Part shown: in pieces, positions 1,883 to 57,111 of the stretch
How positions within the stretch are numbered: the first letter of the stretch is position 1
Layout of the letters: each line of letters starts with the position of its first letter
From: Patescibacteria group bacterium
GTDB lineage: Bacteria; Patescibacteriota; UBA1384; XYA2-FULL-43-10; 1-14-0-10-43-13
Length of the DNA: 64,000 bases
Direction: 5' to 3'
Assembly: GCA_038078835.1 (NCBI GenBank)
Contig: JBBTQI010000009.1
Span: forward strand, 3,714-67,713
Position numbers and translations under genes: made by a program
The notes under the pieces: model-generated
Databases searched by the model: none
What the model was told of the DNA's origin: nothing
The model's input: the letters and a program-made list of their open reading frames with translations, nothing else

Positions 1883-2050
1883 ATCCCAAATAAAAATCCG
1901 ACAGCCGGCGGACCAAATCACAAATAAACAACAAATTCGAAATAATGAAATTTCAAGCACTGGATCGTTGGTATTTGGAAATTGGAATTTATTTGTGGTT
2001 TGGTATTTGAGATTTGAATTTTTCCCGCCGAAGGCGGGGTGGAGGGGTAA

Positions 2051-31285: not shown

Positions 31286-32287
31286 ATGGCAGACTTAACC
31301 GACAAAAAGCAACTAATTCGTTTTTTGCAACAGCACGGGCTTTATACCAAGAAGAAGCTGGGGCAGAATTTTTTAGTTGATAGGGCTGCGCTCGATAAGA
31401 TTGTCGATGCCGCCGGATTATTAAAAGACGATTGTGTTATCGAGATTGGGCCGGGGTTGGGGGTTTTGACAGAGGAGTTAGTGAAGAGAGCTGGAAAAGT
31501 AGTGGCGGTGGAGCTGGACGCGGCTCTGGCCGAGATTTTAGAAGTTAGATTTTCGAAGTTAGAAGAAAATCAAAAACCTCTAAAATCTAAAATCGATATT
31601 CTAAAATCTGATATTCTTCGTATCAACCTTAGTGAAACCACCAAGGATTGTTCGAGTTATAAAGTCGTTGCCAATATTCCTTACTACATCACATCGAAAA
31701 TCCTACGCTTTTTCTTGGAGGCGGAGAAGAAACCGGAATTGATAGTATTGCTAACGCAAAAAGAGGTAGCCGAAAGAATAGTAGCTAAGCCGGGCGAGAT
31801 GTCGATTCTGTCAGTCTCGGTTCAATACTACGGCCGGCCGGAGATTATAGATATTGTGCCTGAAACATCGTTCTTTCCCATGCCGGAAGTTGATAGTGCA
31901 ATATTAAAAATATCGAATATCCATACCCCCTCTAACTCCCCCTTACTAAGGGGGAGAAATCTAAATAATAGTTCCTTCCTTAAAATAGGGAATATTCCCT
32001 CTGATTCCTCCCCTAAGATAGGGGAGGTTAGGTGGGGTATGGAAAATACCGATGTAAAGGAATTTTTCCGCTGTATTCATATCGGTTTTTCGTCAAGGCG
32101 AAAAACATTACTAAATAACTTATCTGCCGGTTACCATCTGGATAAAAAAACAACGCTTGATATACTGGAAAAAGTGGGCTTGACGGAGAGGACAAGAGCG
32201 CAGGAACTATCAATCGGGAAATGGCAGGAGTTATGCCGCCAGTTGCCGGATTGGGACAGGAAAGACAATGAACGAAGCGGGAGCTAG
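31286..32287 (+). CDS. rsmA: 16S rRNA (adenine1518/1519-N6)-dimethyltransferase RsmA/KsgA, with in-frame repeat and palindrome insertions
   Basis: 'KKKLGQNFLVD...IEIGPGLGVLTEEL'. Insert 1 (31586-31625) is a 'tctaaaatc' repeat. Insert 2 (~31925-32045) carries three palindromes and encodes '...SPLLRGRN...SDSSPKIGEVRWGM'. Confidence 0.9.
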   Translation: MADLTDKKQLIRFLQQHGLYTKKKLGQNFLVDRAALDKIVDAAGLLKDDCVIEIGPGLGVLTEELVKRAGKVVAVELDAALAEILEVRFSKLEENQKPLKSKIDILKSDILRINLSETTKDCSSYKVVANIPYYITSKILRFFLEAEKKPELIVLLTQKEVAERIVAKPGEMSILSVSVQYYGRPEIIDIVPETSFFPMPEVDSAILKISNIHTPSNSPLLRGRNLNNSSFLKIGNIPSDSSPKIGEVRWGMENTDVKEFFRCIHIGFSSRRKTLLNNLSAGYHLDKKTTLDILEKVGLTERTRAQELSIGKWQELCRQLPDWDRKDNERSGS

Positions 32288-35057
32288 ACAAGTTGAAGTT
32301 GAATCAAGAACCGAAAGGCAACAATTTGCCGAGGTTTTAGGTTGGCAGCTTTTTGAGGATAAGGGGCAAAGCAAGAAGATATCACTCAATCGACAGAGCC
32401 GAGAAGTTGTCATTAATCCCGAATTATATCCCGATTCGATTCGAGCTCAAGTTGCCGCCGCTATGGCGGTGATGAAAGAATCTGAAGCTGAAAACATATT
32501 GCGCTTGGAGAGTAAAGATGAAATCAGGGCAATAGTTGAAGGCGACACTGTGGCGGTTGCTGATGTTATGTTGTGGAGTTCGGCCGGTAGACTTAAGGAG
32601 ACCGAAAAGCAGACTCTTGACGCACTCTTAAAAAGCCTATCCCAGACTGAAAGCTATACTCAAGAAGTGAAAAACGCTTGTTTTTCTTATATCGCCACCG
32701 GTTCGTATCCTAATTTGTCTCCAGAGTTAAAACCGTTTTTTGATAATTTACCGATCAGTCGTCAAACCGGTCAGAATCCGATCAGCGCCATTGCCGATAG
32801 TGCAGTCGCTACCGAACGCCGGCTTGAGTATTATGAAAGATTTATTCAGCCAATTATCCAACAAGCCAAAGAGTTGGATCGCCAATTAGAAGATACAATG
32901 GGTGAGTCTTTTAAGCCCTCCACCGACGACAGTGAAGGCGAACCGCTTGAGGAAAACGAGATATTACAAAGAGTTTCGCCTTTTTATGGCGGTTACTACC
33001 GTGAAAGAGTTCTTGATGCCGTTGATTGGGAAAATATGGAGATGGTTGCGACACCGCAACCGGCCGAGATAGACAATGGTGTTGAGATTGAAGAAGCAAC
33101 AGAAGTTAAACAGTATCTTTTCTTTGGTCTGGACGGAAAAAATCTGGCACAAGGGCCAGTATCAATTCCGTTATTGGCACGAGCCAGGATTATTAAAGAC
33201 AGTTTGAGCCCTATCGGTCTAGTTGTTAAAAGAGACACCAAGGGAATCCACTTTCTTTCTCTTGATCAAAAAACCGGCACTAATGCTCCGATTGGAGAGT
33301 ATCAATTAAAATTTATTCTTGAGCCTGGCATTTCTGACTTTATGGCCGCTTTGCCGACGGAGGAAGAAAGTTCGCGCGTTGCGCCGGACGTTCTATTCTC
33401 ACCTGAAACTGTCGAAAAACTTCTTGAGCTTGAACAATTAGAAATTTCCGACACAGCTAAAGCAAAAAGGATTGCTGGTCAAATCCGCCGGGAATTAACC
33501 TATGTCAACGACAGTCAAGTTGGCGAAGCTCTCAAAGTTGCCGGCCGGAATTACTTTAAAGAACTCGAAAGCACCGAGAAAGCGGATTGCGATGTTTCAA
33601 ACTTCTACTTGATCGCTCAACTGCGCTCGATCGGCATCCCCGCTCGCATGGTTAGAGGTTATTATCCGACCGATCAAAGATTCGGTTTTACTCCGCTGAA
33701 GGGGACGACCATGCATGCCTGGACGGAGTACTGGGATGCCGGCGCCAAGTGTTGGAAGATGATTGATGCAACTCCCCCTAAGAAAGAGGAGGAACAGGAA
33801 GAGGGAGAAAAACAGGAGGGAAGCGGTGGCAATCAAGCAATGATTGCACAGCAGGAAGAGGGCAAAATCAGTTTTGAGGGCGAAACAGACGACGAAGGTT
33901 TAGAACTTAATGATGAACAGCTTGAAAAATTCAAAGAGTTATTTAAGCAGAAGTATAACGAAATTACTGGCAGGAAAGATCAAACCGAACAGATTCGTCG
34001 AGATGATTTCCTTAAAGAGTACGGTATCACTCCCGAAGAGTGGGAGAAAATTGAACGATTTGTGAATTCAGTAGATCAGACCGTCATTCCTAAAGAGTAT
34101 ACGATTGGCCGGGCAGATGACTCAACTTTGGGCGAGGAGTGGGATAAGTTTTTCGAGATGTTTTTGGTTGCCTATCGTTTGCCGGCTAAAACCGAGAGAA
34201 CGCTAACCCGCCAGAGTTTAGGAGATGATTTAGTTGATCCCAGCTCAACCGTCACTGACCTTTTGGCCGGAAGCGATGATCCTTTCGGCTTTGAGCGGGT
34301 TAAGCGAGGCGAGCAGGAAATTAAACTGCCAATCGATTTTTCTAATGATTTCCTGCTTGATCTGACTTCCTCAATGGAAGCGGCCGATCGTTATGGCAAT
34401 ACGCTCAGAGAGCATCAAAAAAGATTTGTCATGGAGGCATTATATCATGGCTGGAAGATAAACCAGGGAATTAAAAATCATGAAGGTGAACTGCAGGGCG
34501 AACTCCCATTTATAAGCAACCATCTACTCTCGATTCATGGCAATAATCAATATCGGGAGCTGACATCGGGGCAGAAGGAAATTGCCATGACCCAGCTCTC
34601 AGAGGTAATGAAATTGCTTGATGAGACAGAGCAAGGCGCCGGCAATATGATTGGAGCGCTGGAGCAATATCGAAATGCTTTATTAGCCCAACCCGAAGTC
34701 ATACAAAAAATCCGATCCGGACAAATGGTCAAAACCCTAACCATATTGAGTGACGGCAATATGTGGTGCAGTGCTTGCGGCAAAGAATCCTGTTCGTATA
34801 GTTTAAGCACCGAGGAAGCGGCGAAATCAAAAAGATTGGTTGAAGAGTTGCGAAGAATAGGAGTGATCGTCAACGCCATCGGTTTTACCGGTAATTCACG
34901 TCATGTTATAGATATTTTTGACGACAAAACGGATCCGGGCAGAGCCATTGTGGCCGATAATGTCGAACAAGCAGTTGTAATGCACCACAAGCAACTGGTA
35001 AAATCTTGGCAGGTAATTGAAAAAGCGGCCGAATATCGACAGTTCAGCTTAGCGTAA
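32268..35057 (+). CDS. Large transglutaminase-like (Cys-His-Asp core) + von Willebrand factor A domain protein
   Basis: 929 aa. Its start overlaps the ksgA stop. 'CDVSNFYLIAQLRSIGIPARMVRGYY...TTMHAWTEYWDAGAKCWKMIDAT' is the transglutaminase-like core. The C-terminal 'LLDLTSSM...TILSDG' is vWA MIDAS-like. Confidence 0.6.
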   Translation: MNEAGARQVEVESRTERQQFAEVLGWQLFEDKGQSKKISLNRQSREVVINPELYPDSIRAQVAAAMAVMKESEAENILRLESKDEIRAIVEGDTVAVADVMLWSSAGRLKETEKQTLDALLKSLSQTESYTQEVKNACFSYIATGSYPNLSPELKPFFDNLPISRQTGQNPISAIADSAVATERRLEYYERFIQPIIQQAKELDRQLEDTMGESFKPSTDDSEGEPLEENEILQRVSPFYGGYYRERVLDAVDWENMEMVATPQPAEIDNGVEIEEATEVKQYLFFGLDGKNLAQGPVSIPLLARARIIKDSLSPIGLVVKRDTKGIHFLSLDQKTGTNAPIGEYQLKFILEPGISDFMAALPTEEESSRVAPDVLFSPETVEKLLELEQLEISDTAKAKRIAGQIRRELTYVNDSQVGEALKVAGRNYFKELESTEKADCDVSNFYLIAQLRSIGIPARMVRGYYPTDQRFGFTPLKGTTMHAWTEYWDAGAKCWKMIDATPPKKEEEQEEGEKQEGSGGNQAMIAQQEEGKISFEGETDDEGLELNDEQLEKFKELFKQKYNEITGRKDQTEQIRRDDFLKEYGITPEEWEKIERFVNSVDQTVIPKEYTIGRADDSTLGEEWDKFFEMFLVAYRLPAKTERTLTRQSLGDDLVDPSSTVTDLLAGSDDPFGFERVKRGEQEIKLPIDFSNDFLLDLTSSMEAADRYGNTLREHQKRFVMEALYHGWKINQGIKNHEGELQGELPFISNHLLSIHGNNQYRELTSGQKEIAMTQLSEVMKLLDETEQGAGNMIGALEQYRNALLAQPEVIQKIRSGQMVKTLTILSDGNMWCSACGKESCSYSLSTEEAAKSKRLVEELRRIGVIVNAIGFTGNSRHVIDIFDDKTDPGRAIVADNVEQAVVMHHKQLVKSWQVIEKAAEYRQFSLA

Positions 35058-35070
35058 CTTTGGATATAAC

Positions 35071-37914
35071 ATGAGTGAGACAGAAACACCAACAAATCTA
35101 GCCGGAACGCAGACTCAAGCAGAAACATTTGAGGCCAGTTCTGGTAACGCTGAAAAACCGGTTTATGAGCGCAGGCCGCACCATCCTCTTTCTGCAGCTC
35201 CCCGTTTAATCTTGCGGACTCTTCATCGTTATCGGACCGATATCGAAGCATCTAATAACCAGGCGGATTTAACTCAAGATCAAATTAGCGTCATGATTCT
35301 GGAGGCGATGGCCTTAGCCGATGAATTTCTGGTCCGTCCTACAACTGTTTCTGCCGAGGAGCAGCAAAGGAAAAGGATAGAGGAAAACGAACTCTTTCAT
35401 GGAAAAAGCGGAACAAAATTGGCGGATGCTTTTTTGCAACAGTTGGTGCAGGGAGAAGAGACAGCGTTGTCGGAAGGAGAAAAGGTTGGAACCGAGGAAA
35501 AGATAGAAAGAAACATCGCTGAAATCCTCTCTCACAAACAGGTTAGGAATGAAATTCTGGAAATATTCAAACGGGAATATTCCGTGCGAAAAAATACACA
35601 CGCCAAAATTTCGGAATTAGTTGGTATCGAAAATGCCATTGACACTGCTCGTGCCAGATACAGGCAACTTCAGAACGAACCGAGAGGTATTGATTCTGAG
35701 AGCACAGCTTTGCCAACCGGTATATTACAATCAAATCTCCATAAATACCTTGAGATCATCAGTCAACTTGAGCGAAGAATCAGATTAAAGGAGGCAAGGC
35801 TTAAACCTGAAGAATCAGGGTTGCTTGAAGCATCGCGCCTTCTCAAAATGAAGCGCCAGATGAGAGAGTACGGCTTTGCTATGACCGAATCGCGCCAAGC
35901 GCTTTTTGACCGGATCAGCGAACTGGCCAGCCAAGGATACAAAATATTCTTGGGCGGTCCGACCGGCACGGGCAAAACATCATTGGCTGTTTTTGCCATG
36001 CGCCAGATTATCGGTGACGAAAACAGGTTTGAAGTCGTCTCTTGGTCGCCCGAGACAACCACTCGGGATTTATTCGGCAAACCGATCATTAAAGCAACCG
36101 AGGAAGGCAATATCGAGAGTTCAATGCAAAAGGGGCCTTATGCCAGAATCTTAACCGGCGAAACAAGGGGTATTATCAACGATGAATTCACCGCCGGAAC
36201 GACAGCTTCCCAACTTTCATTGAAGAGAATTTATCAAGCGCACGCCGGCGAAGAGATTAATCTGCCTGGTTTTAACGGCACAGTCTTCACTAAGGAAAAT
36301 TACCTTGAGATTTCGACGGGCAATTTACGCTCCAAGCAACACAAAGAAAGAAGCGAGATGGACCCGGCCGTTGCCAGAGAATTCGTTTCTCTAAGCGTCC
36401 CCTTTATGAATAGCGAGGAGGCGGAGAAGGTAATGTTGTCCAGCCTTATTCATGAAACCGGCTTCTTGCCAATATCTAGAACCGAAGCAGAGATGGTAAA
36501 TCAACTTTGCCGAGCGGCCGAGTTTAGCCAAAAAGCGTTTGAAGACGAATTTACTCCCGAAGAAAAACAGAGCGATCTGTATAAGCAGATCGACCCAAGC
36601 GGTGCCGGGGTTCACTTAACTAAAACATTTTTCGATCCGGCCACGCTTTTTAGACTGGTCGACGGAATTTCCGGAAGACCATTCAAGGAAAATCTGCGGG
36701 TAAATTTAGAAAGGGAAATCAACGAGAGTCCTCATCTTAAAACTTTGCCGCACGAGAAAGAAGCTTTTCTTAAAATTCTTAAAGCTTTCGGTTTTAATCT
36801 TAAGGCAGGGAAGCCGGAAGATTTCTATAGACCAAAATCAACACCTTCGGGGAGTCAAAAACCGTATATACTTCCTTCAGAGCAAGGATTCTTATCAACT
36901 GTCGAAAAAATAACCGAGGATCAATTTGAGGGAGCCGGCCAAGCGGGAAGCTCTGGCGCGGAAAGAGTCGGAGACGGAGAGTGGCCATTTAAGGAAGAGG
37001 AGATGAGCCAGGAAAAAATCGCTGAAATTTACGATCGCTATGCCCGAGTTTATGAACAAGAGGGCATTGTCGAGAACGGCCGGATTGCTCCAAGCCTCAT
37101 TTCGACCGAGGTCAGACAACTCGGTTTGGATTTTGCTATGCCGACCAGAGAAGAGTTTCTGCAATTTATTGCCGAACATTCAGAGAAGGAGAAAAGGTTA
37201 ATTGGTCTTGGTTTGATTGAACCGGTCATTGTACCGGTAGCCGCCGACTTAGGCGAAGCTATTCCTGTAACGGCCAGTGAAGAGTACCGCTATAGCGGTT
37301 TGCTTGATATTGTCGCCGCCAAAATCAAAGAACTGGGAGAGGCCGGCCAGCTTCTTGGCAGTGACGGCACGCAAATTACTTGTAATCCCAAATGGCCGAT
37401 CTATGTTAATGATTTATACAAAAAGCTGCGTTTTATGCTCCAAAAAAAAGACGGCACTTTGCAAGGCGGGTTAACGCAAAAGACTTATATCGAAGAGCAG
37501 CAAAAAGACGGCCACCCCTTCCCGGGCTGGGCAATTTACTTTAAGGAAAGGGGCAATATATTGCCTCGAAACAGAGACAGCCAGCCGGATTTAACTGATA
37601 TGACGGCCGATAAAGAGTTATCAAAATATATCGAGGCACTCCATGATCCCAATAAATTAAATATGACCGGCTCCTCGGTTCATCTTGAACTCATGCTTCT
37701 CCTCGAGTCGCTTATCAGAGACAAGAAAGTAACGCGCGACTGGAACAATAATCAAGATGCCGGAGCGGTTCTTGGTGCCAACACCTTTGAAGGTTCCGGC
37801 CGCGTGCCGTTCTACGCCTGGCGTCGCGGCGCTGGCCAGTTAGACCTGAACGCCTACTATCCCGACAATCACTTCTCTGATGTTGTCGGTGTGCCTGCCG
37901 GTGAGATCAGCTGA
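35071..37914 (+). CDS. Large AAA+ ATPase (MoxR/AAA_5-like) with a hypervariable C-terminal region (DGR variable repeat)
   Basis: 947 aa. Walker A 'LGGPTGTGKTSLA' and Walker B 'GIINDEF'. The last ~38 codons are the variable-repeat partner of a template repeat 310 nt downstream. Confidence 0.6.
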   Translation: MSETETPTNLAGTQTQAETFEASSGNAEKPVYERRPHHPLSAAPRLILRTLHRYRTDIEASNNQADLTQDQISVMILEAMALADEFLVRPTTVSAEEQQRKRIEENELFHGKSGTKLADAFLQQLVQGEETALSEGEKVGTEEKIERNIAEILSHKQVRNEILEIFKREYSVRKNTHAKISELVGIENAIDTARARYRQLQNEPRGIDSESTALPTGILQSNLHKYLEIISQLERRIRLKEARLKPEESGLLEASRLLKMKRQMREYGFAMTESRQALFDRISELASQGYKIFLGGPTGTGKTSLAVFAMRQIIGDENRFEVVSWSPETTTRDLFGKPIIKATEEGNIESSMQKGPYARILTGETRGIINDEFTAGTTASQLSLKRIYQAHAGEEINLPGFNGTVFTKENYLEISTGNLRSKQHKERSEMDPAVAREFVSLSVPFMNSEEAEKVMLSSLIHETGFLPISRTEAEMVNQLCRAAEFSQKAFEDEFTPEEKQSDLYKQIDPSGAGVHLTKTFFDPATLFRLVDGISGRPFKENLRVNLEREINESPHLKTLPHEKEAFLKILKAFGFNLKAGKPEDFYRPKSTPSGSQKPYILPSEQGFLSTVEKITEDQFEGAGQAGSSGAERVGDGEWPFKEEEMSQEKIAEIYDRYARVYEQEGIVENGRIAPSLISTEVRQLGLDFAMPTREEFLQFIAEHSEKEKRLIGLGLIEPVIVPVAADLGEAIPVTASEEYRYSGLLDIVAAKIKELGEAGQLLGSDGTQITCNPKWPIYVNDLYKKLRFMLQKKDGTLQGGLTQKTYIEEQQKDGHPFPGWAIYFKERGNILPRNRDSQPDLTDMTADKELSKYIEALHDPNKLNMTGSSVHLELMLLLESLIRDKKVTRDWNNNQDAGAVLGANTFEGSGRVPFYAWRRGAGQLDLNAYYPDNHFSDVVGVPAGEIS
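37792..37905 (+). repeat. DGR variable repeat (VR1) at the 3' end of the AAA+ gene
   Basis: ~114 nt. It is ~88% identical to 38225-38328. 13 of 15 mismatches fall where the downstream copy has adenine (the downstream copy has AAC/AAT codons; here they read CGC/TTC/TAC/TAT/GCC). Confidence 0.65.
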
Positions 37915-38224
37915 CCTTGAGCTTTGATCTTTAAATTTTCTTTTGACTTTGTTTTTGAACTTTGGGATAATGTTATTGGCCAGCGAAACGATCCTGCCGC
38001 AAGACAAGGGCCGCTGGCATTTGTGCCGGCAAATGATCTGTTGCAAAGAGCCTTGTGCTTAGTTTGGACAGAGTGCCGCCACCGTCTAAAAAGTGTTTTC
38101 TCACGTTTGAGTCCTGCCTACCTGGCCTTACTGAAAGAGCCAGGTGTAACAAGCAAGCCAATGCATTGTTAGGAGTTTGCGAACTTTTAACACATCACGG
38201 ACGGACGGGATCAACTTGGGTTCC

Positions 38225-38328
38225 GGCAACGTGCCGAACTGCGAATGGCATCGCGGCGCTGGCCAGTTCAACCTGAACGCCAACAATCCCGACAATCACT
38301 ACTCTGATGTTGTCGGTGTGCCTGCCGG
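38225..38328 (+). repeat. DGR template repeat (TR1), the adenine-rich cognate of VR1
   Basis: It encodes 'GSGNVPNCEWHRGAGQFNLNANNPDNHYSDVVGVPAGE'. The VR encodes 'GSGRVPFYAWRRGAGQLDLNAYYPDNHFSDVVGVPAGE'. Confidence 0.65.
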
Positions 38329-38589
38329 TGAGGAGGCACTTTTTAATTGAGCGACTTGAGCCAGCCGCCAAGCTGTTGTCCTGTTTCACTTATGACTGCT
38401 TGGGCTTGGAATATTTTAGTTGTGTTAGCCAGGTTGAGTTCGAGTAGCAGTCTTAACTTAAGGGCGACAATCTCCAAATGACTTTGGGCGACGACAAGAT
38501 AGCCGGATTTTAGCGGCTTGAGATTTTTCCAACGGGGCGCCGATTGAAAAGACGAAACTGGTATCGCGCGATAAATCGTTTGTCAGAGA

Positions 38590-38773
38590 AGAATTATTCA
38601 AGCTACCACGGATTGGTTAAACAGCATTGCAATTACAAAAAAAGACGGTATTTCAACTGGCTCCTTGGATAAAAAACTAGTGCTTGGTATACTGGTATCG
38701 GTTGGATTGAATGACAAAACTCGGGCGCAGGAATTGCCGGTTAACAAGTGGGAGCAACTTTGCGAAAGATTTT
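38590..38773 (+). pseudogene. Diverged duplicate of the ksgA 3' end (remnant/displaced copy)
   Basis: It translates to '...SLDKKLVLGILVSVGLNDKTRAQELPVNKWEQLCERF*'. The ksgA C-terminus is 'HLDKKTTLDILEKVGLTERTRAQELSIGKWQELCRQL'. Nucleotide identity is roughly 60-65%. Confidence 0.5.
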
Positions 38774-38774
38774 A

Positions 38775-38892
38775 GAATCTAGATTTTGGATTTTAGAATT
38801 AATATTGAGAGCAGAATTAAATGATTAATTCCTCACTCTAGCTTCACTCTAAAATCTATATTCTAACATCTAAAATCTAACAGGTGAGGGGA
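38775..38892. repeat. MITE-like inverted-repeat element built from 'gattttagaat'/'ctaaaatct' units
   Basis: The left arm 'gattttagaatctagattttggattttagaatt' and right arm 'ctctaaaatctatattctaacatctaaaatctaac' are near reverse complements. The same unit occurs in-frame in ksgA (31586-31625). Confidence 0.45.
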
Positions 38893-38893
38893 A

Positions 38894-40366
38894 ATGGACT
38901 CAAATTTTTATAACTGGCAAGGAACCGGCGAAGAGAAAGAAACGAAACTCCTAACGCTCTCCGAATTTCGACGCGAGCTCGGTATTCCGCTGGTTCTGGC
39001 AAAAAAAATGATCGTCTGGGGAATTGTCGGGGCCTATACGACTGTTGACGGAACAATCAGAATTACCGAGGGGGAGCTGCTCAAGACAAGGGAACTGTTA
39101 AAGGATCCCCGGAAGAAGATTAAACTTTTTGCCCGCTCGCTCGGTCCCGGTTTTATTACCGGAGCCTCAGATGACGATCCCTCCGGCATTGCCACATATT
39201 CAGCCGTCGGAGCTAAATTTGGTTTCTCCCTGCTCTGGATGTGCCTTTGGACGACGCCGATGATGCTGGCAATTCAGGAGACATGCGCCCGGATCGGAGT
39301 GGTGGCCAACAAGGGCTTGGCCGGAGTCCTGCAGAAACACTACAGCCGCAAGATTGTAATATCGGTTGTAGCCTTACTAATTATCGCTAATACGGTCAAC
39401 ATCGGGGCTGACATCGGGGCGATGGCGGCATCTTTGCGATTGCTGGTTGATATTAACTTTTTTCTTGCCGCTATTATTTTTACCGCTCTAATAGTTGTTA
39501 TAGAGGTATTTGTGCCCTATTGCGCTTATGTCAAGGTCTTAAAATGGCTGACGGTCTTTATCTTTGCTTATATTGCCACGGGAATTATCGTCCGGCCCGA
39601 TTGGTTGGTGGTTGTCCGGGAAACCTTCACGCCCGAATTGCGTTTTGATGATGATTACATCTTTGCCGTTGTCGCTTTTTTGGGGACGACCATTACGCCC
39701 TACCTCTTTTTCTGGCAAACCTCGGAGGAGGTCGAGGAGAATATTCTGGCAAACGGCAATAAAGTGCTCACGCCCTACAAACGGACACAGCGTATCGCCC
39801 GGATGCGTACCGATGTTAAGGCCGGCATGATTCTCTCCAATCTGGTGGCCTTCTTTATTGTTTTAACAACCGCCTCGGTTCTTTTTAAGCACGGCGTTAC
39901 CAATATTGAATCGGCCGAGCAGGCGGCCGAAGCACTTAGGCCGTTGGCCGGAGAGTACGCCTATCTTCTCTTCGCCTTGGGAATTATCGGCACGGGTTTG
40001 TTGGCCGTACCGATACTGGCCGGCGCGGGCGCTTATGCTTTGAGTGAAGTAATGAATTGGCGCGAGGGCTTGGGCCAGAAGTTTTCTAAGGCCAGGGGCT
40101 TCTACATTATTATCATTCTTTCGATTATTGCCGGTATGGCACTCAACTTTATTGGCATAAACCCGATTGTCGCTCTCTACTACACCGCCTTCTTGAACGG
40201 GGTAATTGCCGTTCCTCTCCTGATCGTAATTATGATAGTCGGGAACGATCCAAAAATAATGGGTCAGGAAACTCATCCGAAGTGGGTTAAGTTTTTTGGC
40301 TGGTTGGCTGTGGTCTCAATGGCGCTGGCCGTGTTTTTGTCCCTTGGCCTTAATTTTGTGGTATAG
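38894..40366 (+). CDS. mntH: NRAMP-family divalent metal transporter with an N-terminal ~70-aa extension
   Basis: 'GPGFITGASDDDPSGIATYSAVGAKFGFSLLW' is an Nramp-like signature. There are ~11 TM segments. The N-terminal extension 'LSEFRRELGIPLVLAKKMIVWG' looks HTH-like. Confidence 0.7.
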   Translation: MDSNFYNWQGTGEEKETKLLTLSEFRRELGIPLVLAKKMIVWGIVGAYTTVDGTIRITEGELLKTRELLKDPRKKIKLFARSLGPGFITGASDDDPSGIATYSAVGAKFGFSLLWMCLWTTPMMLAIQETCARIGVVANKGLAGVLQKHYSRKIVISVVALLIIANTVNIGADIGAMAASLRLLVDINFFLAAIIFTALIVVIEVFVPYCAYVKVLKWLTVFIFAYIATGIIVRPDWLVVVRETFTPELRFDDDYIFAVVAFLGTTITPYLFFWQTSEEVEENILANGNKVLTPYKRTQRIARMRTDVKAGMILSNLVAFFIVLTTASVLFKHGVTNIESAEQAAEALRPLAGEYAYLLFALGIIGTGLLAVPILAGAGAYALSEVMNWREGLGQKFSKARGFYIIIILSIIAGMALNFIGINPIVALYYTAFLNGVIAVPLLIVIMIVGNDPKIMGQETHPKWVKFFGWLAVVSMALAVFLSLGLNFVV

Positions 40367-40391: not shown

Positions 40392-41189
40392 ATGAATGAG
40401 AGATCAGGCACACTTTTTATCGTTGCCACGCCGATCGGCAACTTGGAGGACATTACGCTTCGGGCGATTCGGGTCTTGCAGGATGTTGACCTGATTGCTT
40501 GCGAGGATACGCGAGTGACGCGGCATCTCTTAGATCACTTTGAGATCAAAACACCAACAGTGTCATATTTTCAGCACTCTAAATTATCGAAGATCGACTA
40601 CCTGATATCGGAGCTGCGGTCGGGCAAAGATATCGCCTTAATTTCCGATGCCGGCACACCGGCAATCAGCGATCCGGGACAGGAGTTAATTGCTAACATT
40701 CGTCAGGCTTGTCATTCTGAACCCTTCGGCCTTACTCAGGGTAAACTCCGTGAAGAATCTAGGTCGCCAAAGGCGACCGTAAATAAGAGTGCGGCTTCGC
40801 CTAGATCCTTCGCTAACGCTCAGGATGACATCAGGGTGGTGCCCATCCCCGGCCCGTCGGCTTTGACGGCGGCGGCGAGTGTCTCCGGTATGATCGAGAA
40901 AGAGTTTTACTTTGCCGGGTTTTTGCCCAAGAAAAAGGGCCGGCAGACAGAATTAAAGAAACTATCGAAGCTCGATGTGCCGATTATAATGTACGAATCA
41001 ACTTTAAGGTTAGAGCGAACGCTTGCCGATATTAAAACGTATTTTGATGACAAGACCGAAGTCTTTGTTGCTCGAGAAATGACCAAAATGTTTGAAGAGT
41101 ATTGGGGCGGGAAGATAGATGAAGTCTTAAACGATCTCAAGAGTCACAAGTTAAAAGGTGAGATTGTGTTGGTGGTCAAGAAATTATAA
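40392..41189 (+). CDS. rsmI: 16S rRNA (cytidine1402-2'-O)-methyltransferase RsmI, with a ~40-aa in-frame insertion
   Basis: 'GTLFIVATPIGNLEDITLRAIRVLQDVDLIACEDTR...' and 'VVPIPGPSALTAA'. The insertion 'CHSEPFGLTQGKLREESRSPKATVNKSAASPRSFANAQDDIR' at ~40710-40835 contains the hairpin 'ctaggtcgccaaaggcgacc'. Confidence 0.8.
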   Translation: MNERSGTLFIVATPIGNLEDITLRAIRVLQDVDLIACEDTRVTRHLLDHFEIKTPTVSYFQHSKLSKIDYLISELRSGKDIALISDAGTPAISDPGQELIANIRQACHSEPFGLTQGKLREESRSPKATVNKSAASPRSFANAQDDIRVVPIPGPSALTAAASVSGMIEKEFYFAGFLPKKKGRQTELKKLSKLDVPIIMYESTLRLERTLADIKTYFDDKTEVFVAREMTKMFEEYWGGKIDEVLNDLKSHKLKGEIVLVVKKL

Positions 41190-41223
41190 GTCGTATAGGA
41201 CATATAAGACGTATAGGGTGTAT

Positions 41224-41742
41224 ATGTACAAAGATTTGAAAACTTACCAGAATACAGTAATCATCCATGACTTTACCGTTGAGTTTTGCCGGCGATATGT
41301 TGATTACAAATCCCGAACGAAAGATCAGATGGAGCAGGCGGCCAGATCCGGCAAACAGAACATTACGGAGGGGTGTGAAGCTTCCCGAACTTCCAAAAAA
41401 ACCGAGTTAAAGCTGCTTGGTGTTGCTTATGCCTCGCTGAAAGAGTTGCTGGAAGATTATGAGGATTATCTTCGCCAGCATAATTTAGCTCTTTGGGTCA
41501 AAGATTCAGAGCCAGCCAAGGCTGTCCGAGCCTTGGCATATACGACTCATAAGTCTTATATGACCTATAAGTCGTATATGGAGAAACCGGAAGAAGCTTG
41601 CAACGCGATGATATGTCTCATAAGCCAGACCACTTACATGCTGAGTAACCAAATTAAATCTCTAAAGGAGGCGTTTTTACAGGAAGGTGGTTTTACAGAA
41701 AACCTCTACAAAGAGCGTTCGGAAAGGCGAGGGCGAAAATAA
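41224..41742 (+). CDS. Four-helix-bundle protein (23S rRNA intervening-sequence protein family), flanked and interrupted by 'tataagNcgtata' repeats
   Basis: '...TYQNTVIIHDFTVEFCRRY...ARSGKQNITEGCEASRTSK...' resembles PF05635. The repeats lie at 41176-41220, 41536-41581 and 41741-41780. Confidence 0.55.
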   Translation: MYKDLKTYQNTVIIHDFTVEFCRRYVDYKSRTKDQMEQAARSGKQNITEGCEASRTSKKTELKLLGVAYASLKELLEDYEDYLRQHNLALWVKDSEPAKAVRALAYTTHKSYMTYKSYMEKPEEACNAMICLISQTTYMLSNQIKSLKEAFLQEGGFTENLYKERSERRGRK

Positions 41743-41781
41743 GACCTATAAGACATATACGTCCTATAAGTCGTATAATTA

Positions 41782-42444
41782 GTGGAAAAAAGTATGGTTA
41801 CAAATTTAATCGACATCTTAGCCAACTTTGTGGTTAACACCATCGACATGATTGGCTACTTTGGCATTTTTATTCTGATGCTGGTGGATTCGGCCGGGAT
41901 TCCTATGCCCTCGGAAGTTATAATGCCCTTTTCGGGCTTTCTGGTGGCCGACGGCCGGATGAATTTTTGGGCAGTTGTCCTGATTGGGACACTTGGCAAT
42001 CTTGTTGGCTCCCTCTTGGCGTATTGGGTTGGCTGCAAGGGCGGGCGACCGTTGATTGAAAGGTACGGCAAGTATATTTTGATCTCCAAACACGACCTTG
42101 ACTTGGCTGACCGCTGGTTTAAGAACTACGGTAACGCGACAACTTTTTTCGGCCGCGTCTTGCCGATTGTCCGGACATACATCTCCTTTCCGGCTGGCAT
42201 CGCCCGGATGAATATTTGGAAATTCTCGCTCTACACCTTTTTGGGCGCCCTGCCCTGGTGTGCCGCCCTGACATATGCCGGAGTCAAGATGGGTAGTAAT
42301 TGGGAGTTAATCCGCGAGAAACTCCATAACTTTGATCTCTTAATCGCTGTCCTCATCATCGCCTTTGTCGCACTCTGCGTCTGGCGACACATCAACACGA
42401 AAAATCGTGCAAAAAACCTTGACAGAAGCGATAAAACAGTGTAA
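41782..42444 (+). CDS. DedA/SNARE-associated family membrane protein
   Basis: 'FGIFILMLVDSAGIPMPSEVIMPFSGFLV...FFGRVLPIVRTYISFPAG' is the DedA signature. Confidence 0.8.
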   Translation: MEKSMVTNLIDILANFVVNTIDMIGYFGIFILMLVDSAGIPMPSEVIMPFSGFLVADGRMNFWAVVLIGTLGNLVGSLLAYWVGCKGGRPLIERYGKYILISKHDLDLADRWFKNYGNATTFFGRVLPIVRTYISFPAGIARMNIWKFSLYTFLGALPWCAALTYAGVKMGSNWELIREKLHNFDLLIAVLIIAFVALCVWRHINTKNRAKNLDRSDKTV

Positions 42445-42561: not shown

Positions 42562-43246
42562 ATGACGACGATGGCAAAGACCATTGATCGCGTTCTCGAC
42601 GAAGTCAAGCCGAAGGCCAGCCAGATCGGAGATCTGGCGATGCACGGCGCTCTTAAGAGTGGCTTGTCCGCAGAAGACCTCCAGCGCGTCATCGAACGCG
42701 GCGGGGAGTTCCAGGACGCCATCCAGCCGATCCTTTGGCGCCTCGGTGCCGCTGTAACCCTGGTGGACTCCGATCTGCTTCAGCCGGTCACGTTCGTGCC
42801 GGTCGAGGGCACCGAGTCCTTCAAGGCTGGCGAGCACTTCAAGCGGGGCACCACCGACAGTGTAGTCATAGGCTACGTCGGATCGAACTTCGAGGCCGCG
42901 TTCGGGGGCAAGGTGGAGACCAACATCCCGAAGGCAAACTTGCGCATCCACCGGCTTCGCCAGAGCAGCATCGACGCCCCGATCATTGCTGGGCTCGGCG
43001 GCGAGGCGCAGGTCGAAAACCAGCCTGGCCCACCTCTGGGAGCTGCTGAAGCTCCAGGGCCACGGGCAGGAAGGTGTCCTGCTCACCAACGGGTGGGCGA
43101 ACATCTTCTACATCCGCGACTCGAACGGGATCCTCTGGGCGGTCTACTGCTGCTGGTACTCCGGCGCCGGCTTCTGGTGCGTCGAAGCCAATCCGGTCAC
43201 GTATCCGTTCAGGTGGGGCGATGGCTGCCGGGTCGTCTCCCGCTGA
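42562..43246 (+). CDS. GC-rich hypothetical protein carrying a DGR variable repeat at its C-terminus (probable frameshift at an A4 run, 43016-43019)
   Basis: Frame 1 is protein-like up to '...GGEAQVEN'. Frame 2 is protein-like from 'SLAHLWELLKLQGHGQEGVLLTNGWANIFYIRDSNGILWAVYCCWYSGAGFWCVEANPVTYPFRWGDGCRVVSR*'. Deleting one A merges them. The start codon is uncertain. Confidence 0.5.
43135..43243 (+). repeat. DGR variable repeat (VR2)
   Basis: 109 nt, collinear with 43610-43718. All 17 nucleotide differences fall where the downstream copy has adenine: TAC/TGC/TTC/GGC/TAT/CGG here versus AAC/GAC/AAT/CAG downstream. Confidence 0.75.
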
Positions 43247-43298
43247 TTCTTAGCGCTTTGAGCCTAGTGCTCTGGCGCTCTGAATCTTTAACTCTCTC

Positions 43299-43315
43299 CG
43301 CCGCGAAGCGGCGGT
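43299..43315 (+). promoter_or_regulatory. GC-rich hairpin downstream of VR2 (candidate DGR homing-enhancing stem-loop)
   Basis: 'ccgccgc-gaa-gcggcgg' is a 7-bp GC stem with a GAA loop, ~55 nt after the VR. It is analogous in form to the hairpin that follows Bordetella phage DGR VRs. Confidence 0.4.
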
Positions 43316-43609
43316 CGACACAGGTGGCTCTTCCCAGCTCTCTTTGGAGGGTAGCGGAAGGGCCACCTTTTCTGTTAATGTGAGTGCAGGAATCGTAAAG
43401 CGCAACGGCTACGGCTTTTGCCTACGTTCTTAAGTCTTTATTCTCCCAGAATTGCTTCGGGCACGCCTTAAGCAAGAGCGGTTACTAAGGATTTTCAAAA
43501 AATGAAATGAATCGGTGCTAACTATTGGCAGACTTTTAGGTCTCAAATAAAATACAGCAAAGCGAAGCAATTTGTTTGCGGTGATTACAGAGGATAGTTA
43601 GTACATTAT

Positions 43610-43718
43610 CTGGGCGGTCAACTGCAACTGGAACTCCGACGCCGGCAACTGGAACGTCGAAGCCAATCCGGTCACGAATCCGAACAGGTGGAACGATGGC
43701 AACCAGGTCGTCTCCCGC
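43610..43718 (+). repeat. DGR template repeat (TR2), adenine/AAC-rich
   Basis: It encodes 'WAVNCNWNSDAGNWNVEANPVTNPNRWNDGNQVVSR'. The VR encodes 'WAVYCCWYSGAGFWCVEANPVTYPFRWGDGCRVVSR'. Confidence 0.75.
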
Positions 43719-43980
43719 AACTCATTTCTTTTCTTCCACTCCGGTGGAAGTTTTTGATATCAAACCTTTTCGCCAACCCCCAACCATTCTGCCAATCTCG
43801 TTAAACTGTTCAGAGACGGCAATGTATTTTTTGTTATCCAGCGCTTTGATTTCCCAAGCAACCAGTCAATCATATTCGGGTTTGCTGGGGCATGGCAATG
43901 GCTATAAGATTGGGTAAAAAATTGATTTGAGGGTAAAGCGCTTATTGTAGATTAAGCCTGATTTTGATAGGATTTCATTA

Positions 43981-45549
43981 ATGAGCAAGAAATATTATAT
44001 TACAACCCCAATTTATTACGTTAATGATGTCCCGCACGTCGGTCATGCTTACACCACTATTGCGGCGGATGTTTTGGCGCGGTATCACCGGGAAAAAGGC
44101 GAGGAGGTCTTTTTTTTGACCGGCACGGACGAGCATGGGGCCAAGATTGCCGAGGCGGCGGAGAAGGCCGGCAAAGAGCCTAAGGCTTTTGTCGATGAAC
44201 TGGCGCCGAAGTTCCAAGAGGTTTGGAAGAAATTAAATATTAATTATTCCGAATTTTTTAGAACGACCAATCCCGAGCACGAGAGGCTGGTGCAGGAGTT
44301 TATCGGGCGGGTTAATAAGGCCGGTTACATCGAGAAACGGCAATACACCGGACTCTATTGCATTGCCTGCGAGCGGTATTATCGCGAGGATGAGTTAATC
44401 GACGGCAAGTGTCCAGATCACAAGCGCGAGCTCGTCAGGCAATCAGAGGAAAATTATTTCTTTCTTTTATCCAAATTTGGAGATCAATTACTGGAAAAGA
44501 TCGAATCTGGTGAGATGGAGATCGGGCCGGAGACGCGCAAGAATGAGATCGTCAGCAAGATAAAACTGGGTCTGGAGGATATCAGTATTTCCAGAGCTAA
44601 TGTTAAGTGGGGCATTCCTTTTCCCGGAGACGAATCTCAAACTATTTATGTCTGGTTCGATGCACTGCTAAATTATTGGACGGCGACGAAGATCTACGGC
44701 CAAGATAAGGGGGACAGTCCCCAGGCTGCAAAGGGGACAGTCCCCGGACCGGAATGGCCGGCGGATTTGCACTTGATGGCCAAGGACATTTTGTGGTTTC
44801 ATGCCGTGATTTGGCCGGCGATGCTCCTTGCGGCCGGTGAGGCTGTGCCTAAAAAGGTCTTTGCTCACGGCTTCTTCACTATCAACGGTCAAAAGATGAG
44901 CAAGACACTGGGTAATGTCATTAACCCCAACGAAGTCGTCGACAAATTCGGCGCCGATGCCGTTCGCTACGCCCTTCTGCGCGAATTCCCCTTTGGCGAA
45001 GACGGCGATATCTCGGTGGAGAAGATCGGCGAGCGCCATAAAGAGCTGGCGGATACCTTGGGGAATTTACTTCAACGTACTGTCGTGATGATTAATAAAT
45101 ATCAAGTCCATACCACCTCTAGCCCCTCCTACCCTAGGAGGGGAAATGGGGAGATTGACCCAACCCATTCTTCCCTCCCTAAGATAGGTAGTCTATCTTC
45201 CGATTCCTCCCCTAAGATAGGGGAGGCTAGGTGGGGTATGAGTATTAACTTAGATATTGAATCATCGCAATTTTCTCGCGCTTTGGAGAAGATCATGACT
45301 TTTGCGGCGAAGCAGAACCAATTTATTAATGAGAAAGCGCCGTGGGTTTTAGCCAAAGAAGGCAAAACGAATGAAATTAAAGAGGTTTTAAGTGCAGTTT
45401 ATGGTAACCTTATGATAATATCGGAACTTTTCATACCCTTCATGCCCGAGACGGCTAAAAAGATGAAACAGCAGTTGGAATCATTGAAACCCGAGCCGTT
45501 ATTCCCCAGAATCGACTTAGATAAAACACAGATGATGAAAGCAGATTAA
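43981..45549 (+). CDS. metG: Methionyl-tRNA synthetase (short form), with a ~45-aa in-frame palindromic insertion
   Basis: 'PIYYVNDVPHVGHAYTT' (HIGH) and 'KMSKTLGNV' (KMSKS). The insertion at ~45115-45245 encodes 'SSPSYPRRGNGEIDPTHSSLPKIGSLSSDSSPKIGEARWGM'. Its 41 nt at 45201-45241 are nearly identical to ksgA 32000-32040. Confidence 0.9.
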   Translation: MSKKYYITTPIYYVNDVPHVGHAYTTIAADVLARYHREKGEEVFFLTGTDEHGAKIAEAAEKAGKEPKAFVDELAPKFQEVWKKLNINYSEFFRTTNPEHERLVQEFIGRVNKAGYIEKRQYTGLYCIACERYYREDELIDGKCPDHKRELVRQSEENYFFLLSKFGDQLLEKIESGEMEIGPETRKNEIVSKIKLGLEDISISRANVKWGIPFPGDESQTIYVWFDALLNYWTATKIYGQDKGDSPQAAKGTVPGPEWPADLHLMAKDILWFHAVIWPAMLLAAGEAVPKKVFAHGFFTINGQKMSKTLGNVINPNEVVDKFGADAVRYALLREFPFGEDGDISVEKIGERHKELADTLGNLLQRTVVMINKYQVHTTSSPSYPRRGNGEIDPTHSSLPKIGSLSSDSSPKIGEARWGMSINLDIESSQFSRALEKIMTFAAKQNQFINEKAPWVLAKEGKTNEIKEVLSAVYGNLMIISELFIPFMPETAKKMKQQLESLKPEPLFPRIDLDKTQMMKAD

Positions 45550-55749: not shown

Positions 55750-55987
55750 ATTTCGCGAACTAGTACCGTTACATCTTGATTTCAGTGCAGTTTCTCCAAA
55801 CTCTAACACACCGGTTTTAAAAGGGACTGTGCTGCGTCAAAACTATGATGTAACGGTACTAGTGGCGGCATATCTCATCGAACAAGGCAAAAGTCCAGCA
55901 AAAGCTGTTGAGTTCATTAAAACAAAACGTCCATCGGTTCACCTACGGGACGCTCAAAAAGAAGTCTTATATGAATTCTCACAATAA
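55691..55987 (+). pseudogene. Possible remnant of a dual-specificity phosphatase C-terminus (no catalytic CxxGxxR loop)
   Basis: 'VTVLVAAYLIEQGKSPAKAVEFIKTKRPSVHLRDAQKEVLYEF' resembles a DSP C-terminal helix. A 17-bp perfect inverted repeat (55761-55777 and 55848-55864) lies in the region. Confidence 0.25.
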
Positions 55988-55998
55988 TCGGGAGGGGT

Positions 55999-57111
55999 TT
56001 GTCTCTTATTGCACTCAAAAACCTACTTCAAGAAAGAACTAAGTTGGCTATCTGTATTGGTGGCGTAGCTTTTTCTGTTCTCCTTATCCTGATTATGAAC
56101 GGTCTTTATCAGGGCTGGAGCGTTAAAATGGGAGCCTATCCCGAAAGCATTCCGGCCGATCTTTGGGTGGAGCAAGCCGGAGTTGGCGACATGTATCATG
56201 CACTCTCGTTTTTGCCGGACAATCTCTCCGCTAAATTAGAGAGTATCGAAGGGGTAAGGAGCGCCAACAAATATCTTGGCCGGCAGGCGATGTTTGATTA
56301 CAACGGCAAAGACCGATCTCTTTTTTTGGTTGGACTTGATACAAAAACCGGCACAACAAAGCCGTACAAAATGAAGGAGGGCAGTTGGCAGAATTTGAAA
56401 GACGGAGAGATAATTATCGATCAAGTATTTGCCAAAGATACAAGTTTGAAAATTGGCGATACTTTAGACATTAACGGCGAAAAACTAAGAATCGCCGGCA
56501 TCTCTGACGGCGGCAACATAATCACTTTCTCTTTTGCTTTCGTCACCATGCAACAGGCGGCCAAAATGTTCAATTTGGGCGAAAAGGTTAATTTCTATCT
56601 CTTAAATATTGACTCTGCCGCAGATTTGTTAACTGTTAAGAATCGTGTCGAAAAAGAAATATCCGGATCAAAGGTTCTGACTAAGACCGAGTATGTTACA
56701 ACTTCGAAGAAGGTTATCACCGACACATTTCTCCCAATTATTGCAGTATTGGTTGTTATCGCACTGGCGGTTGGCATTGCCGTTATCGGACTGACTACCT
56801 ACTCGGCCACAATTGAGAAAGCCCGCGAGTATGGGGTATTAAAAGCTATTGGCCTCAATAACCTTCAACTTTTCAAGACTGTTATTATCCAGGCGCTAAT
56901 TTCCGGTTTAATCGGCTACGTGGTGGGTGTTGGATTAGCCTATCTTGTCGGATATATTGCCACGAATATAGTATCTGCTTTTGTGACCCTAATTCGTCCG
57001 GTTGATCTGCTTTGGGTTTTTGGGGCTACGGTTCTAATGTCTTTAATTGCCGCCTATATCCCGATGAAAAGAATTTTTTCTATTGATCCAGCAGAGGTGT
57101 TTAAGTCTTAA
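55999..57111 (+). CDS. ABC transporter permease (FtsX-like/MacB-type)
   Basis: N-terminal TM, a large extracytoplasmic domain, then three C-terminal TMs. Confidence 0.75.
   Translation: MSLIALKNLLQERTKLAICIGGVAFSVLLILIMNGLYQGWSVKMGAYPESIPADLWVEQAGVGDMYHALSFLPDNLSAKLESIEGVRSANKYLGRQAMFDYNGKDRSLFLVGLDTKTGTTKPYKMKEGSWQNLKDGEIIIDQVFAKDTSLKIGDTLDINGEKLRIAGISDGGNIITFSFAFVTMQQAAKMFNLGEKVNFYLLNIDSAADLLTVKNRVEKEISGSKVLTKTEYVTTSKKVITDTFLPIIAVLVVIALAVGIAVIGLTTYSATIEKAREYGVLKAIGLNNLQLFKTVIIQALISGLIGYVVGVGLAYLVGYIATNIVSAFVTLIRPVDLLWVFGATVLMSLIAAYIPMKRIFSIDPAEVFKS

Follow-up and report, generated by a model that had tools for sequence, protein, structure and literature searches.

Introduction

Diversity-generating retroelements (DGRs) in candidate phyla radiation (CPR) bacteria commonly have a layout in which a target gene ending in a variable repeat (VR) is followed, after a spacer of ~450 nt, by the template repeat (TR), by the accessory gene avd on the opposite strand, and by a reverse transcriptase (RT) gene that diverges from avd. 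Going by the text of Wu et al. 2018 (PMC5758913), this layout is probably their architecture B3, which that text assigns to 90% of CPR DGRs; in Roux et al. 2021 (PMC8144416) it corresponds to DGR clade 2, and it is the closest known system to the locus described here. The locus lies in a 64,000-nt stretch of a Patescibacteria group bacterium genome (GCA_038078835.1, contig JBBTQI010000009.1), hereafter the window, and centers on an adenine-specific VR/TR pair upstream of metG. Here, we report that it is very probably an inactivated CPR-type DGR, from which the RT core and most of avd have been deleted and whose target gene has been frameshifted.

The locus also resembles the DGR of Bordetella phage BPP-1, with which it shares differences between TR and VR that are adenine-specific and lie at the 3' end of a target gene with a predicted, distantly C-type-lectin-like fold, an identical GC-rich 3' end of both repeats resembling an initiation-of-mutagenic-homing (IMH) site, a GC-rich hairpin downstream of the VR, and an Avd-family accessory gene. 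Unlike in BPP-1, avd is found after the TR on the opposite strand instead of lying between target and TR, a phage context is lacking, and the element is, in all likelihood, dead.

Inactivated DGRs have been met in surveys before. In the text of Wu et al. 2018 (PMC5758913), more than half of the candidate DGRs are said to have been discarded for premature stops or truncations, poor TR-VR matches, or short contigs, and inactivated DGRs are remarked upon as present at a high level. The locus resembles these in the premature stops and truncations of its components, and differs in that remnants, together with a near-identical intact relative, make it possible to trace what was lost. Because DGR surveys start from the RT, loci in which the RT is almost gone have remained uncatalogued, and RT-anchored surveys are blind to such relics.

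Results

An earlier note, made from the letters of the window alone, had described two ~109-nt copies, VR1 at 43135-43243 and TR1 at 43610-43718 (both on the + strand), and read them as a DGR signature. The two copies align without gaps, with an offset of 475 throughout; in BLAST the match is one base longer and starts at 43134 and 43609. When the alignment was tabulated, exactly 17 mismatches were found, with A in the downstream copy at 17/17 and no mismatch at any non-A position in 109 nt. Thus, 17 of the 27 TR1 adenines are substituted in VR1 (by 10 T and 7 G), and all 17 fall at codon position 1 or 2 of the VR1 frame, which ends in the TGA at 43244-43246. The hypergeometric probability of all 17 mismatches falling on 27 A among 109 positions is P = 2.6e-13. 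As the note had also stated, AAC/AAT/GAC-type codons of TR1 face TAC, TGC, TTC, GGC, and similar codons in VR1, the in-gene and downstream peptides that it quoted are exact translations, and both copies share an identical, IMH-like 3' end, GGTCGTCTCCCGC.

A GC hairpin, CCGCCGC-GAA-GCGGCGG, starts 55 nt after the end of VR1 and represents a candidate DGR target-recognition hairpin. The hairpin with its GAA loop is as previously described, apart from its coordinates, which were one base off and should read 43298-43314 (+). Folded as DNA, it reaches -9.9 kcal/mol (z = -2.5), and 0/200 shuffles fold as well. DGR hairpins described by Guo et al. 2011 (PMC3240598) have GC-rich stems of 7-10 bp and a 4-nt GRNA loop, and in phage DGRs the VR is 4-34 bp away. 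The window hairpin resembles them but has a 3-nt loop and lies farther from its VR. With adenine-specific mismatches at codon positions 1/2, an identical GC-rich 3' end, and a GC hairpin downstream, VR1 and TR1 are a genuine DGR VR/TR pair.

VR1 had been placed at the end of a single GC-rich gene. The locus is indeed GC-rich (target 1, 63.5%; window, 48.6%; metG, 47.7%), but no single open reading frame (ORF) spans the gene. The N-terminal ~150 codons (42562-43020, +) are read in the frame of the ATG at 42562/42574, which continues to 43383, while the C-terminal part carrying VR1 (42986-43246, +) is in the +1 frame and ends at the TGA already mentioned. Relative to intact homologues, an extra A in the run at 43016-43019 (+) puts VR1 in a different frame from the first ~150 codons (gtcgAAAAcc in the window vs gttgAGAcc in the intact relative L004, described below). 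In the NCBI annotation of this Patescibacteria metagenome-assembled genome (MAG), the frameshifted gene appears as AAB360_02745, a 270-aa hypothetical protein. Joining the frames near 43020 yields a repaired protein of 227 aa, collinear across the shift with 43 homologues of ~190-300 aa, most of them 190-240 aa. No Pfam or NCBIfam family was matched by target 1. The AlphaFold model of the repaired protein is of high confidence, with a pLDDT of 91, and by its predicted fold target 1 is a divergent variable protein, distantly C-type-lectin-like, of the kind that Roux et al. 2021 (PMC8144416) anticipated among CPR DGR targets. The VR of a functional DGR lies in an intact target gene, typically at the C-terminal end of a domain with the C-type-lectin fold; VR1 lies in a broken one.

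The intact relative L004 (GCA_035389625.1, contig DAOOSE010000021.1; L004/L012), which carries the target homologue P0006, provides the reference for what has been lost. Its target occupies 157-747, its VR 635-744, and its TR 1109-1218, followed by avd at 1222-1626 (-) and the RT at 1609-2751 (+). The window shares with it the parts' order and orientation, the target family, the GC hairpin after the VR, which is identical in L004, and the spacing of ~475 nt from target-VR to TR. In the window, however, avd codons 1 to ~89 and about 310 codons from the start of the RT are missing, and the target is frameshifted. Where L004 has ~1.24 kb of avd and RT, the two gene ends abut in the window at ~43860, ~120 nt before metG. 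The flanking genes are unrelated, being metG in the window and type IV secretion genes in L004. L004 comes from an activated-sludge MAG, and the window from a German groundwater Patescibacterium. Within the L004 TR, an in-frame TAG (1201-1203) stands where its VR has TGG (727-729), so that an unmutated adenine at this site would cut the target by 4 residues.

Similarity between the two loci is concentrated in a block of 826 bp (window 42971-43796, L004 476-1296), which is 91.6% identical at the nucleotide level and spans the 3' part of the target, the VR, the spacer, the TR, and the last 26 avd codons. Identity is 88% in the 3' part of the target, 87% in the VR (with the differences at A sites), 91.5% in the spacer, 98% in the TR, and 96% in the 78 nt after it, and it drops to 48% upstream of 42971 and to 45% beyond 43796. 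At the level of sequence, such a sharp block suggests recombinational exchange of a VR-TR module between DGRs. TR1 differs from the L004 TR at two non-A sites, 43697 and 43704, and VR1 carries the window variants at both; therefore, homing still ran after the two TRs had diverged.

Signals that may delimit a TR transcript are present on both sides of TR1. A promoter-like site, TTGGCA-17-TAAAAT (43525-43553, +), lies ~55 nt upstream of TR1 at the putative start of a TR RNA, and 117 nt around it are 98% identical to L004. A hairpin followed by a T-run, CTTCCAC-TCCG-GTGGAAG then TTTTT (43733-43755, +; z = -3.1), is located 14 nt past TR1, antisense to the 3' end of avd, and looks like a terminator. 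An Rfam search of 30-50 kb of the window gave no matches at E <= 0.1.

Beyond TR1 are the remains of avd and RT. The note had found no RT or avd within 20 kb; this holds for an intact RT and a functional avd, which are absent from the window, but not for their remnants, since a truncated avd adjoins TR1 and an RT C-terminal remnant lies beyond it. Avd remnant 1 (43722-43862, -) retains the last 45-47 codons and the stop at 43722-43724, and its N-terminal ~89 codons are gone. Its coding part (43725-43859, -) is 64% identical to residues 90-134 of the L004 Avd (tblastn, E 1e-15) and matches Pfam bAvd at positions 76-106, NCBIfam DivGenRetAVD at 73-104, and a hidden Markov model (HMM) of the family at 74-112 (E 2.5e-15). 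RT remnant 1 (43855-43932, +), SQATSQSYSGLLGHGNGYKIG*..., keeps ~25 codons from the C-terminal end of the RT, and an in-frame stop lies within it at 43915-43917. It corresponds to RT HMM positions 314-339, a conserved C-terminal motif of these RTs, where SQATSQSYSGLLGHGNGYKIG faces the consensus nqslqsylGvlkhckgyki. Its E-value is 0.16 over the whole window and 1.2e-5 when the search is restricted to the stretch from the avd remnant to metG, and 0/300 shuffles reach the latter score. As previously noted, metG follows directly, starting at 43981.

No intact RT was found in the window by tblastn with three related DGR RTs or by a six-frame search with an RT HMM of 120 sequences. That HMM gave a third match at 55884-56018 (+; positions 285-329, E 0.05), which we set aside as weak and probably due to chance in view of its K-richness and the lack of any avd, TR, or VR in its vicinity. 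Among the 7,825 RT matches listed in the protein database, none could be assigned to this MAG by name or accession, and the four named MAG RTs that were checked have accessions unrelated to MEK9156199.1.

Self-comparison of the window returned only one other A-biased repeat pair, belonging to a second cassette 5 kb upstream. Its target gene 2 (35071-37914, +; AAB360_02715) has an intact ORF, whose 947-aa product includes an AAA_5-type ATPase region in its N-terminal half, and lies after a transglutaminase-like gene. VR2 (37792-37905, +), at the 3' end of target 2, shows 13 mismatches to TR2 (38219-38332, +), the template of the pair; 11 of the 13 are at TR adenines (P 1.3e-7), and the other two are at 37814 and 37842. 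We considered these two as a sign of decay and rejected the idea, because the apparently intact L006/L014 has 2/14 such mismatches. After TR2 comes avd remnant 2 (38343-38582, -), with ~53-79 C-terminal codons and the stop at 38343-38345 but no start codon; it matches Pfam bAvd at 53-106, DivGenRetAVD at 55-104, and the family HMM at 55-107 (E 2.8e-5). A possible RT remnant 2 (RLSEKNYSSYHGLVKQHCNYK; 38577-38639, +) matches RT HMM positions 311-330 weakly, with E 2.6 over the whole window and 0.05 over the predicted interval, and 2/300 shuffles reach its whole-window score of 3.7 bits; this match to the RT C-terminal motif is suggestive only. Nramp, at 38894, lies downstream of the cassette.

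The CPR-type layout is thus recognizable twice, with the avd stop 4 nt past TR1 and 11 nt past TR2 and an RT remnant on the + strand beyond; neither an RT beside the TR nor an intact avd is present in the window. An intact relative of the second cassette, L039 from a Berkelbacteria MAG, has the series Transglut_core, AAA_5 target, TR, avd (-), and RT (+). Its TR matches two VRs, and the C-terminal ~300 residues of target 2 are unrelated to those of its target. Cassette 2 is a second DGR that decayed like the first, with its target still intact.

The family of TR1 was then surveyed with a TR-specific pattern requiring unmutated AAC codons. Viral contigs gave 0 matches to this pattern. GTDB-representative genomes contain seven TR loci, each with an A-biased VR/TR pair and with full-length avd (-) and RT (+) sequence (7/7); in one of them, L011, the RT is frameshifted. 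The genome of the window is not part of this collection, since TR1 itself fits the pattern and was not among the matches. Metagenome contigs contain 23, and avd followed by RT sequence is found in 20/20 assessable loci, the other three having been excluded since the contig ends within ~420 nt after the TR. Within this family, the RT of L020 is internally deleted, keeping HMM positions 4-83 (the first ~80 residues) and 316-340, that of L031 keeps only positions 303-339, and L035 has a frameshifted avd. The order TR, inverted avd, RT is identical in L004, L006, L009-L015, and L039; the avd(-)/RT(+) core recurs in L005 and L006, and L003 and L007 carry members of the target family without a DGR nearby. 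The RT-less state is atypical for the family of TR1, and decay of this type of element recurs, the window being one more case, in agreement with Wu et al. 2018 (PMC5758913).

Four independently decayed copies keep the end of the RT, namely its last ~25-60 codons (HMM from ~285-316): the two in the window (43855-43932 and 38577-38639), L020 (1282-1380), and L031 (1705-1863). The left ends of the deletions differ, and with n=4 chance, detection bias, or a preferred breakpoint could each account for the pattern.

Other contigs allow the constancy of both cassettes to be judged. The frameshifted 270-aa product of target 1 recurs without change on 4 contigs; in a collection of 15 billion proteins, its 90%-identity cluster has no other member and no variant is present. 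Because this product reads through VR1 in another frame, almost any change in VR1 would alter it. The 24-kb contig L002, from another Hainich groundwater sample, has 2 differences from the window in 11,930 bases, none of them near cassette 1, and no difference in or near VR1 or TR1. The protein carrying VR2 is likewise identical on 7 contigs, with no variants in its 90% cluster, and L043, a contig of the second sample, shows 0 differences in 5,844 bases over window 33571-39414. Ongoing diversification of either VR is therefore not seen at the consensus level.

Discussion

Seen against its relatives, the locus shows the loss of the 5' part of avd and of the RT core as well as the frameshift of the target. 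The earlier steps would follow from the established DGR mechanism and the anatomy of the locus. The promoter-like site and the hairpin with its T5 run would have marked the two ends of a short TR RNA. This RNA would have been reverse-transcribed by the adjacent RT with Avd, the template adenines being miscopied. The resulting cDNA would have replaced VR1 at the 3' end of the target, probably aided by the GC hairpin, leaving the 17 A-to-N differences. Subsequently, as the comparison with relatives shows, an internal deletion of ~1.2 kb removed the first two thirds of avd and ~90% of the RT, placing the two 3' ends back to back, and a one-base insertion shifted the frame of target 1. VR1 is the frozen record of the last homing event. 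Since ordinary substitutions between VR1 and TR1 are absent, inactivation would have been recent.

The earlier note had implied a DGR that works without an RT or far from one. This idea is not supported, in view of the avd and RT remnants beside TR1, in the positions and orientations of the relatives' genes, the frameshift of the target, and a product that is identical on 4 contigs. As a rival reading, the two TR-VR units would be non-autonomous but functional cassettes, diversified in trans by an RT-Avd elsewhere in the genome, their local avd and RT having become redundant and been lost. Several of our own observations favor it and weigh against inactivation. VR1 and TR1 have no non-A mismatch, and with 96-98% identity to an apparently intact, and apparently active, element, TR1, its promoter-like site, and the hairpin after it look like undamaged cis parts, which fits a very recent inactivation and also continued use. 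The same parts were lost in two cassettes of one genome, which could hint at something systematic, and the ORF of target 2 is intact. Furthermore, our view covers 64 kb of a 179-kb contig, so that an RT may exist elsewhere in the genome, and the invariance of the VRs was established on consensus assemblies rather than on read-level population data.

Nevertheless, we regard use in trans as very unlikely. Because target 1 is frameshifted, diversifying VR1 would be pointless, and the products of both VRs are identical on 4 and 7 contigs, respectively, without variants in their 90% clusters, while the DNA of the second sample is identical across both cassettes. In a database of 5.8 billion clusters, the closest RT to that of L004 has 57% identity, and no near-cognate RT for TR1 was found there. 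Additionally, avd and RT sequence accompanies every other assessable TR of the family. The related proposal that both RT-less cassettes are satellite templates used in trans by an RT-Avd elsewhere, at least for the intact target 2, strikes us as hardly probable; if true, several dispersed TRs, with a target next to each, would share one RT.

Alternatively, the locus may never have been complete, the 826-bp VR-spacer-TR module having recombined into a pre-existing homologous gene without an RT. The abrupt change in identity to L004 at 42971 and 43796 (48% / 88-98% / 45%) and the GC content of the target in a window of much lower GC agree with such an import, and Roux et al. 2021 (PMC8144416) have put forward that DGR target modules recombine intragenically. 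However, avd-homologous codons run ~20 past the right boundary of the module (43797-43859) with family-level similarity only, and the RT C-terminal remnant follows beyond them. The most conserved ~26 codons of avd remnant 1 lie inside the shared module, and the E of 2.5e-15 covers the whole remnant. Because avd codons and an RT remnant lie beyond the boundary, a resident avd-RT pair once existed at the site, and we give an origin without an RT only a slim chance. Module exchange may well have happened; it leaves the missing RT unexplained.

Finally, an artefact, be it a duplication that is ordinary or due to chance, or the loss of the RT through misassembly, is barely conceivable even for a metagenome assembly, given the A-bias of the first pair and the recurrence of the same junctions and frameshifted protein on 4 contigs (7 for cassette 2), with 2/11,930 and 0/5,844 differences in L002 and L043. 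In light of this, we favor inactivation of a once complete CPR-type DGR, which makes the locus a clean, datable example of the death of such an element, by a deletion across the divergent avd-RT pair and a target frameshift, with VR and TR unmarked by ordinary mutations. It also serves as a caution that an A-specific VR/TR pair without a nearby RT should be checked for remnants and intact relatives before a new mechanism is claimed. Besides, the occurrence of an 826-bp module at 92% identity in otherwise unrelated contexts supports modular exchange of DGR target ends.

Additional observations

Upstream of cassette 1, we considered whether avd had been split by an inversion, as the match of the four-helix-bundle ORF at 41158-41742 to the 23S_rRNA_IVP profile was limited to the profile's N-terminal part, and that of the post-TR fragment (-) to bAvd was limited to the C-terminal part. 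This was rejected: the upstream gene is complete, its product being a "four helix bundle suffix domain" protein that scores above the TIGR04258 cutoff, and intact relatives have avd (-) right after the TR. The 172-aa gene concerned (41224-41742; TIGR04258/TIGR02436) has no match to the DGR Avd model. The motifs TATAAGTCGTATA and TATAAGACATATA, at 41180-41790, flank this gene and recur inside it, and a hairpin with a 13-bp stem is found among them immediately past its stop.

Two further kinds of repeats occur in the window. Long diverged internal repeats, with units of ~150 nt that are 55-90% identical, extend over GC-rich DNA at 59763-62823; Tandem Repeats Finder, run on 59-64 kb of the window, found nothing. 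A palindrome-containing element of ~70 nt (TTCCTCCCCTAAGATAGGGGAGG.TAGGTGGGGTATG) is present at 31972-32041 and 45171-45240, in frame in two unrelated housekeeping genes, an rRNA adenine dimethylase ORF (31286-32287) and metG. Its two copies are 84% identical and add the similar peptides SSFLKIGNIPSDSSPKIGEVRWGM and SSLPKIGSLSSDSSPKIGEARWGM, which recalls the in-frame insertions of Rickettsia palindromic elements.

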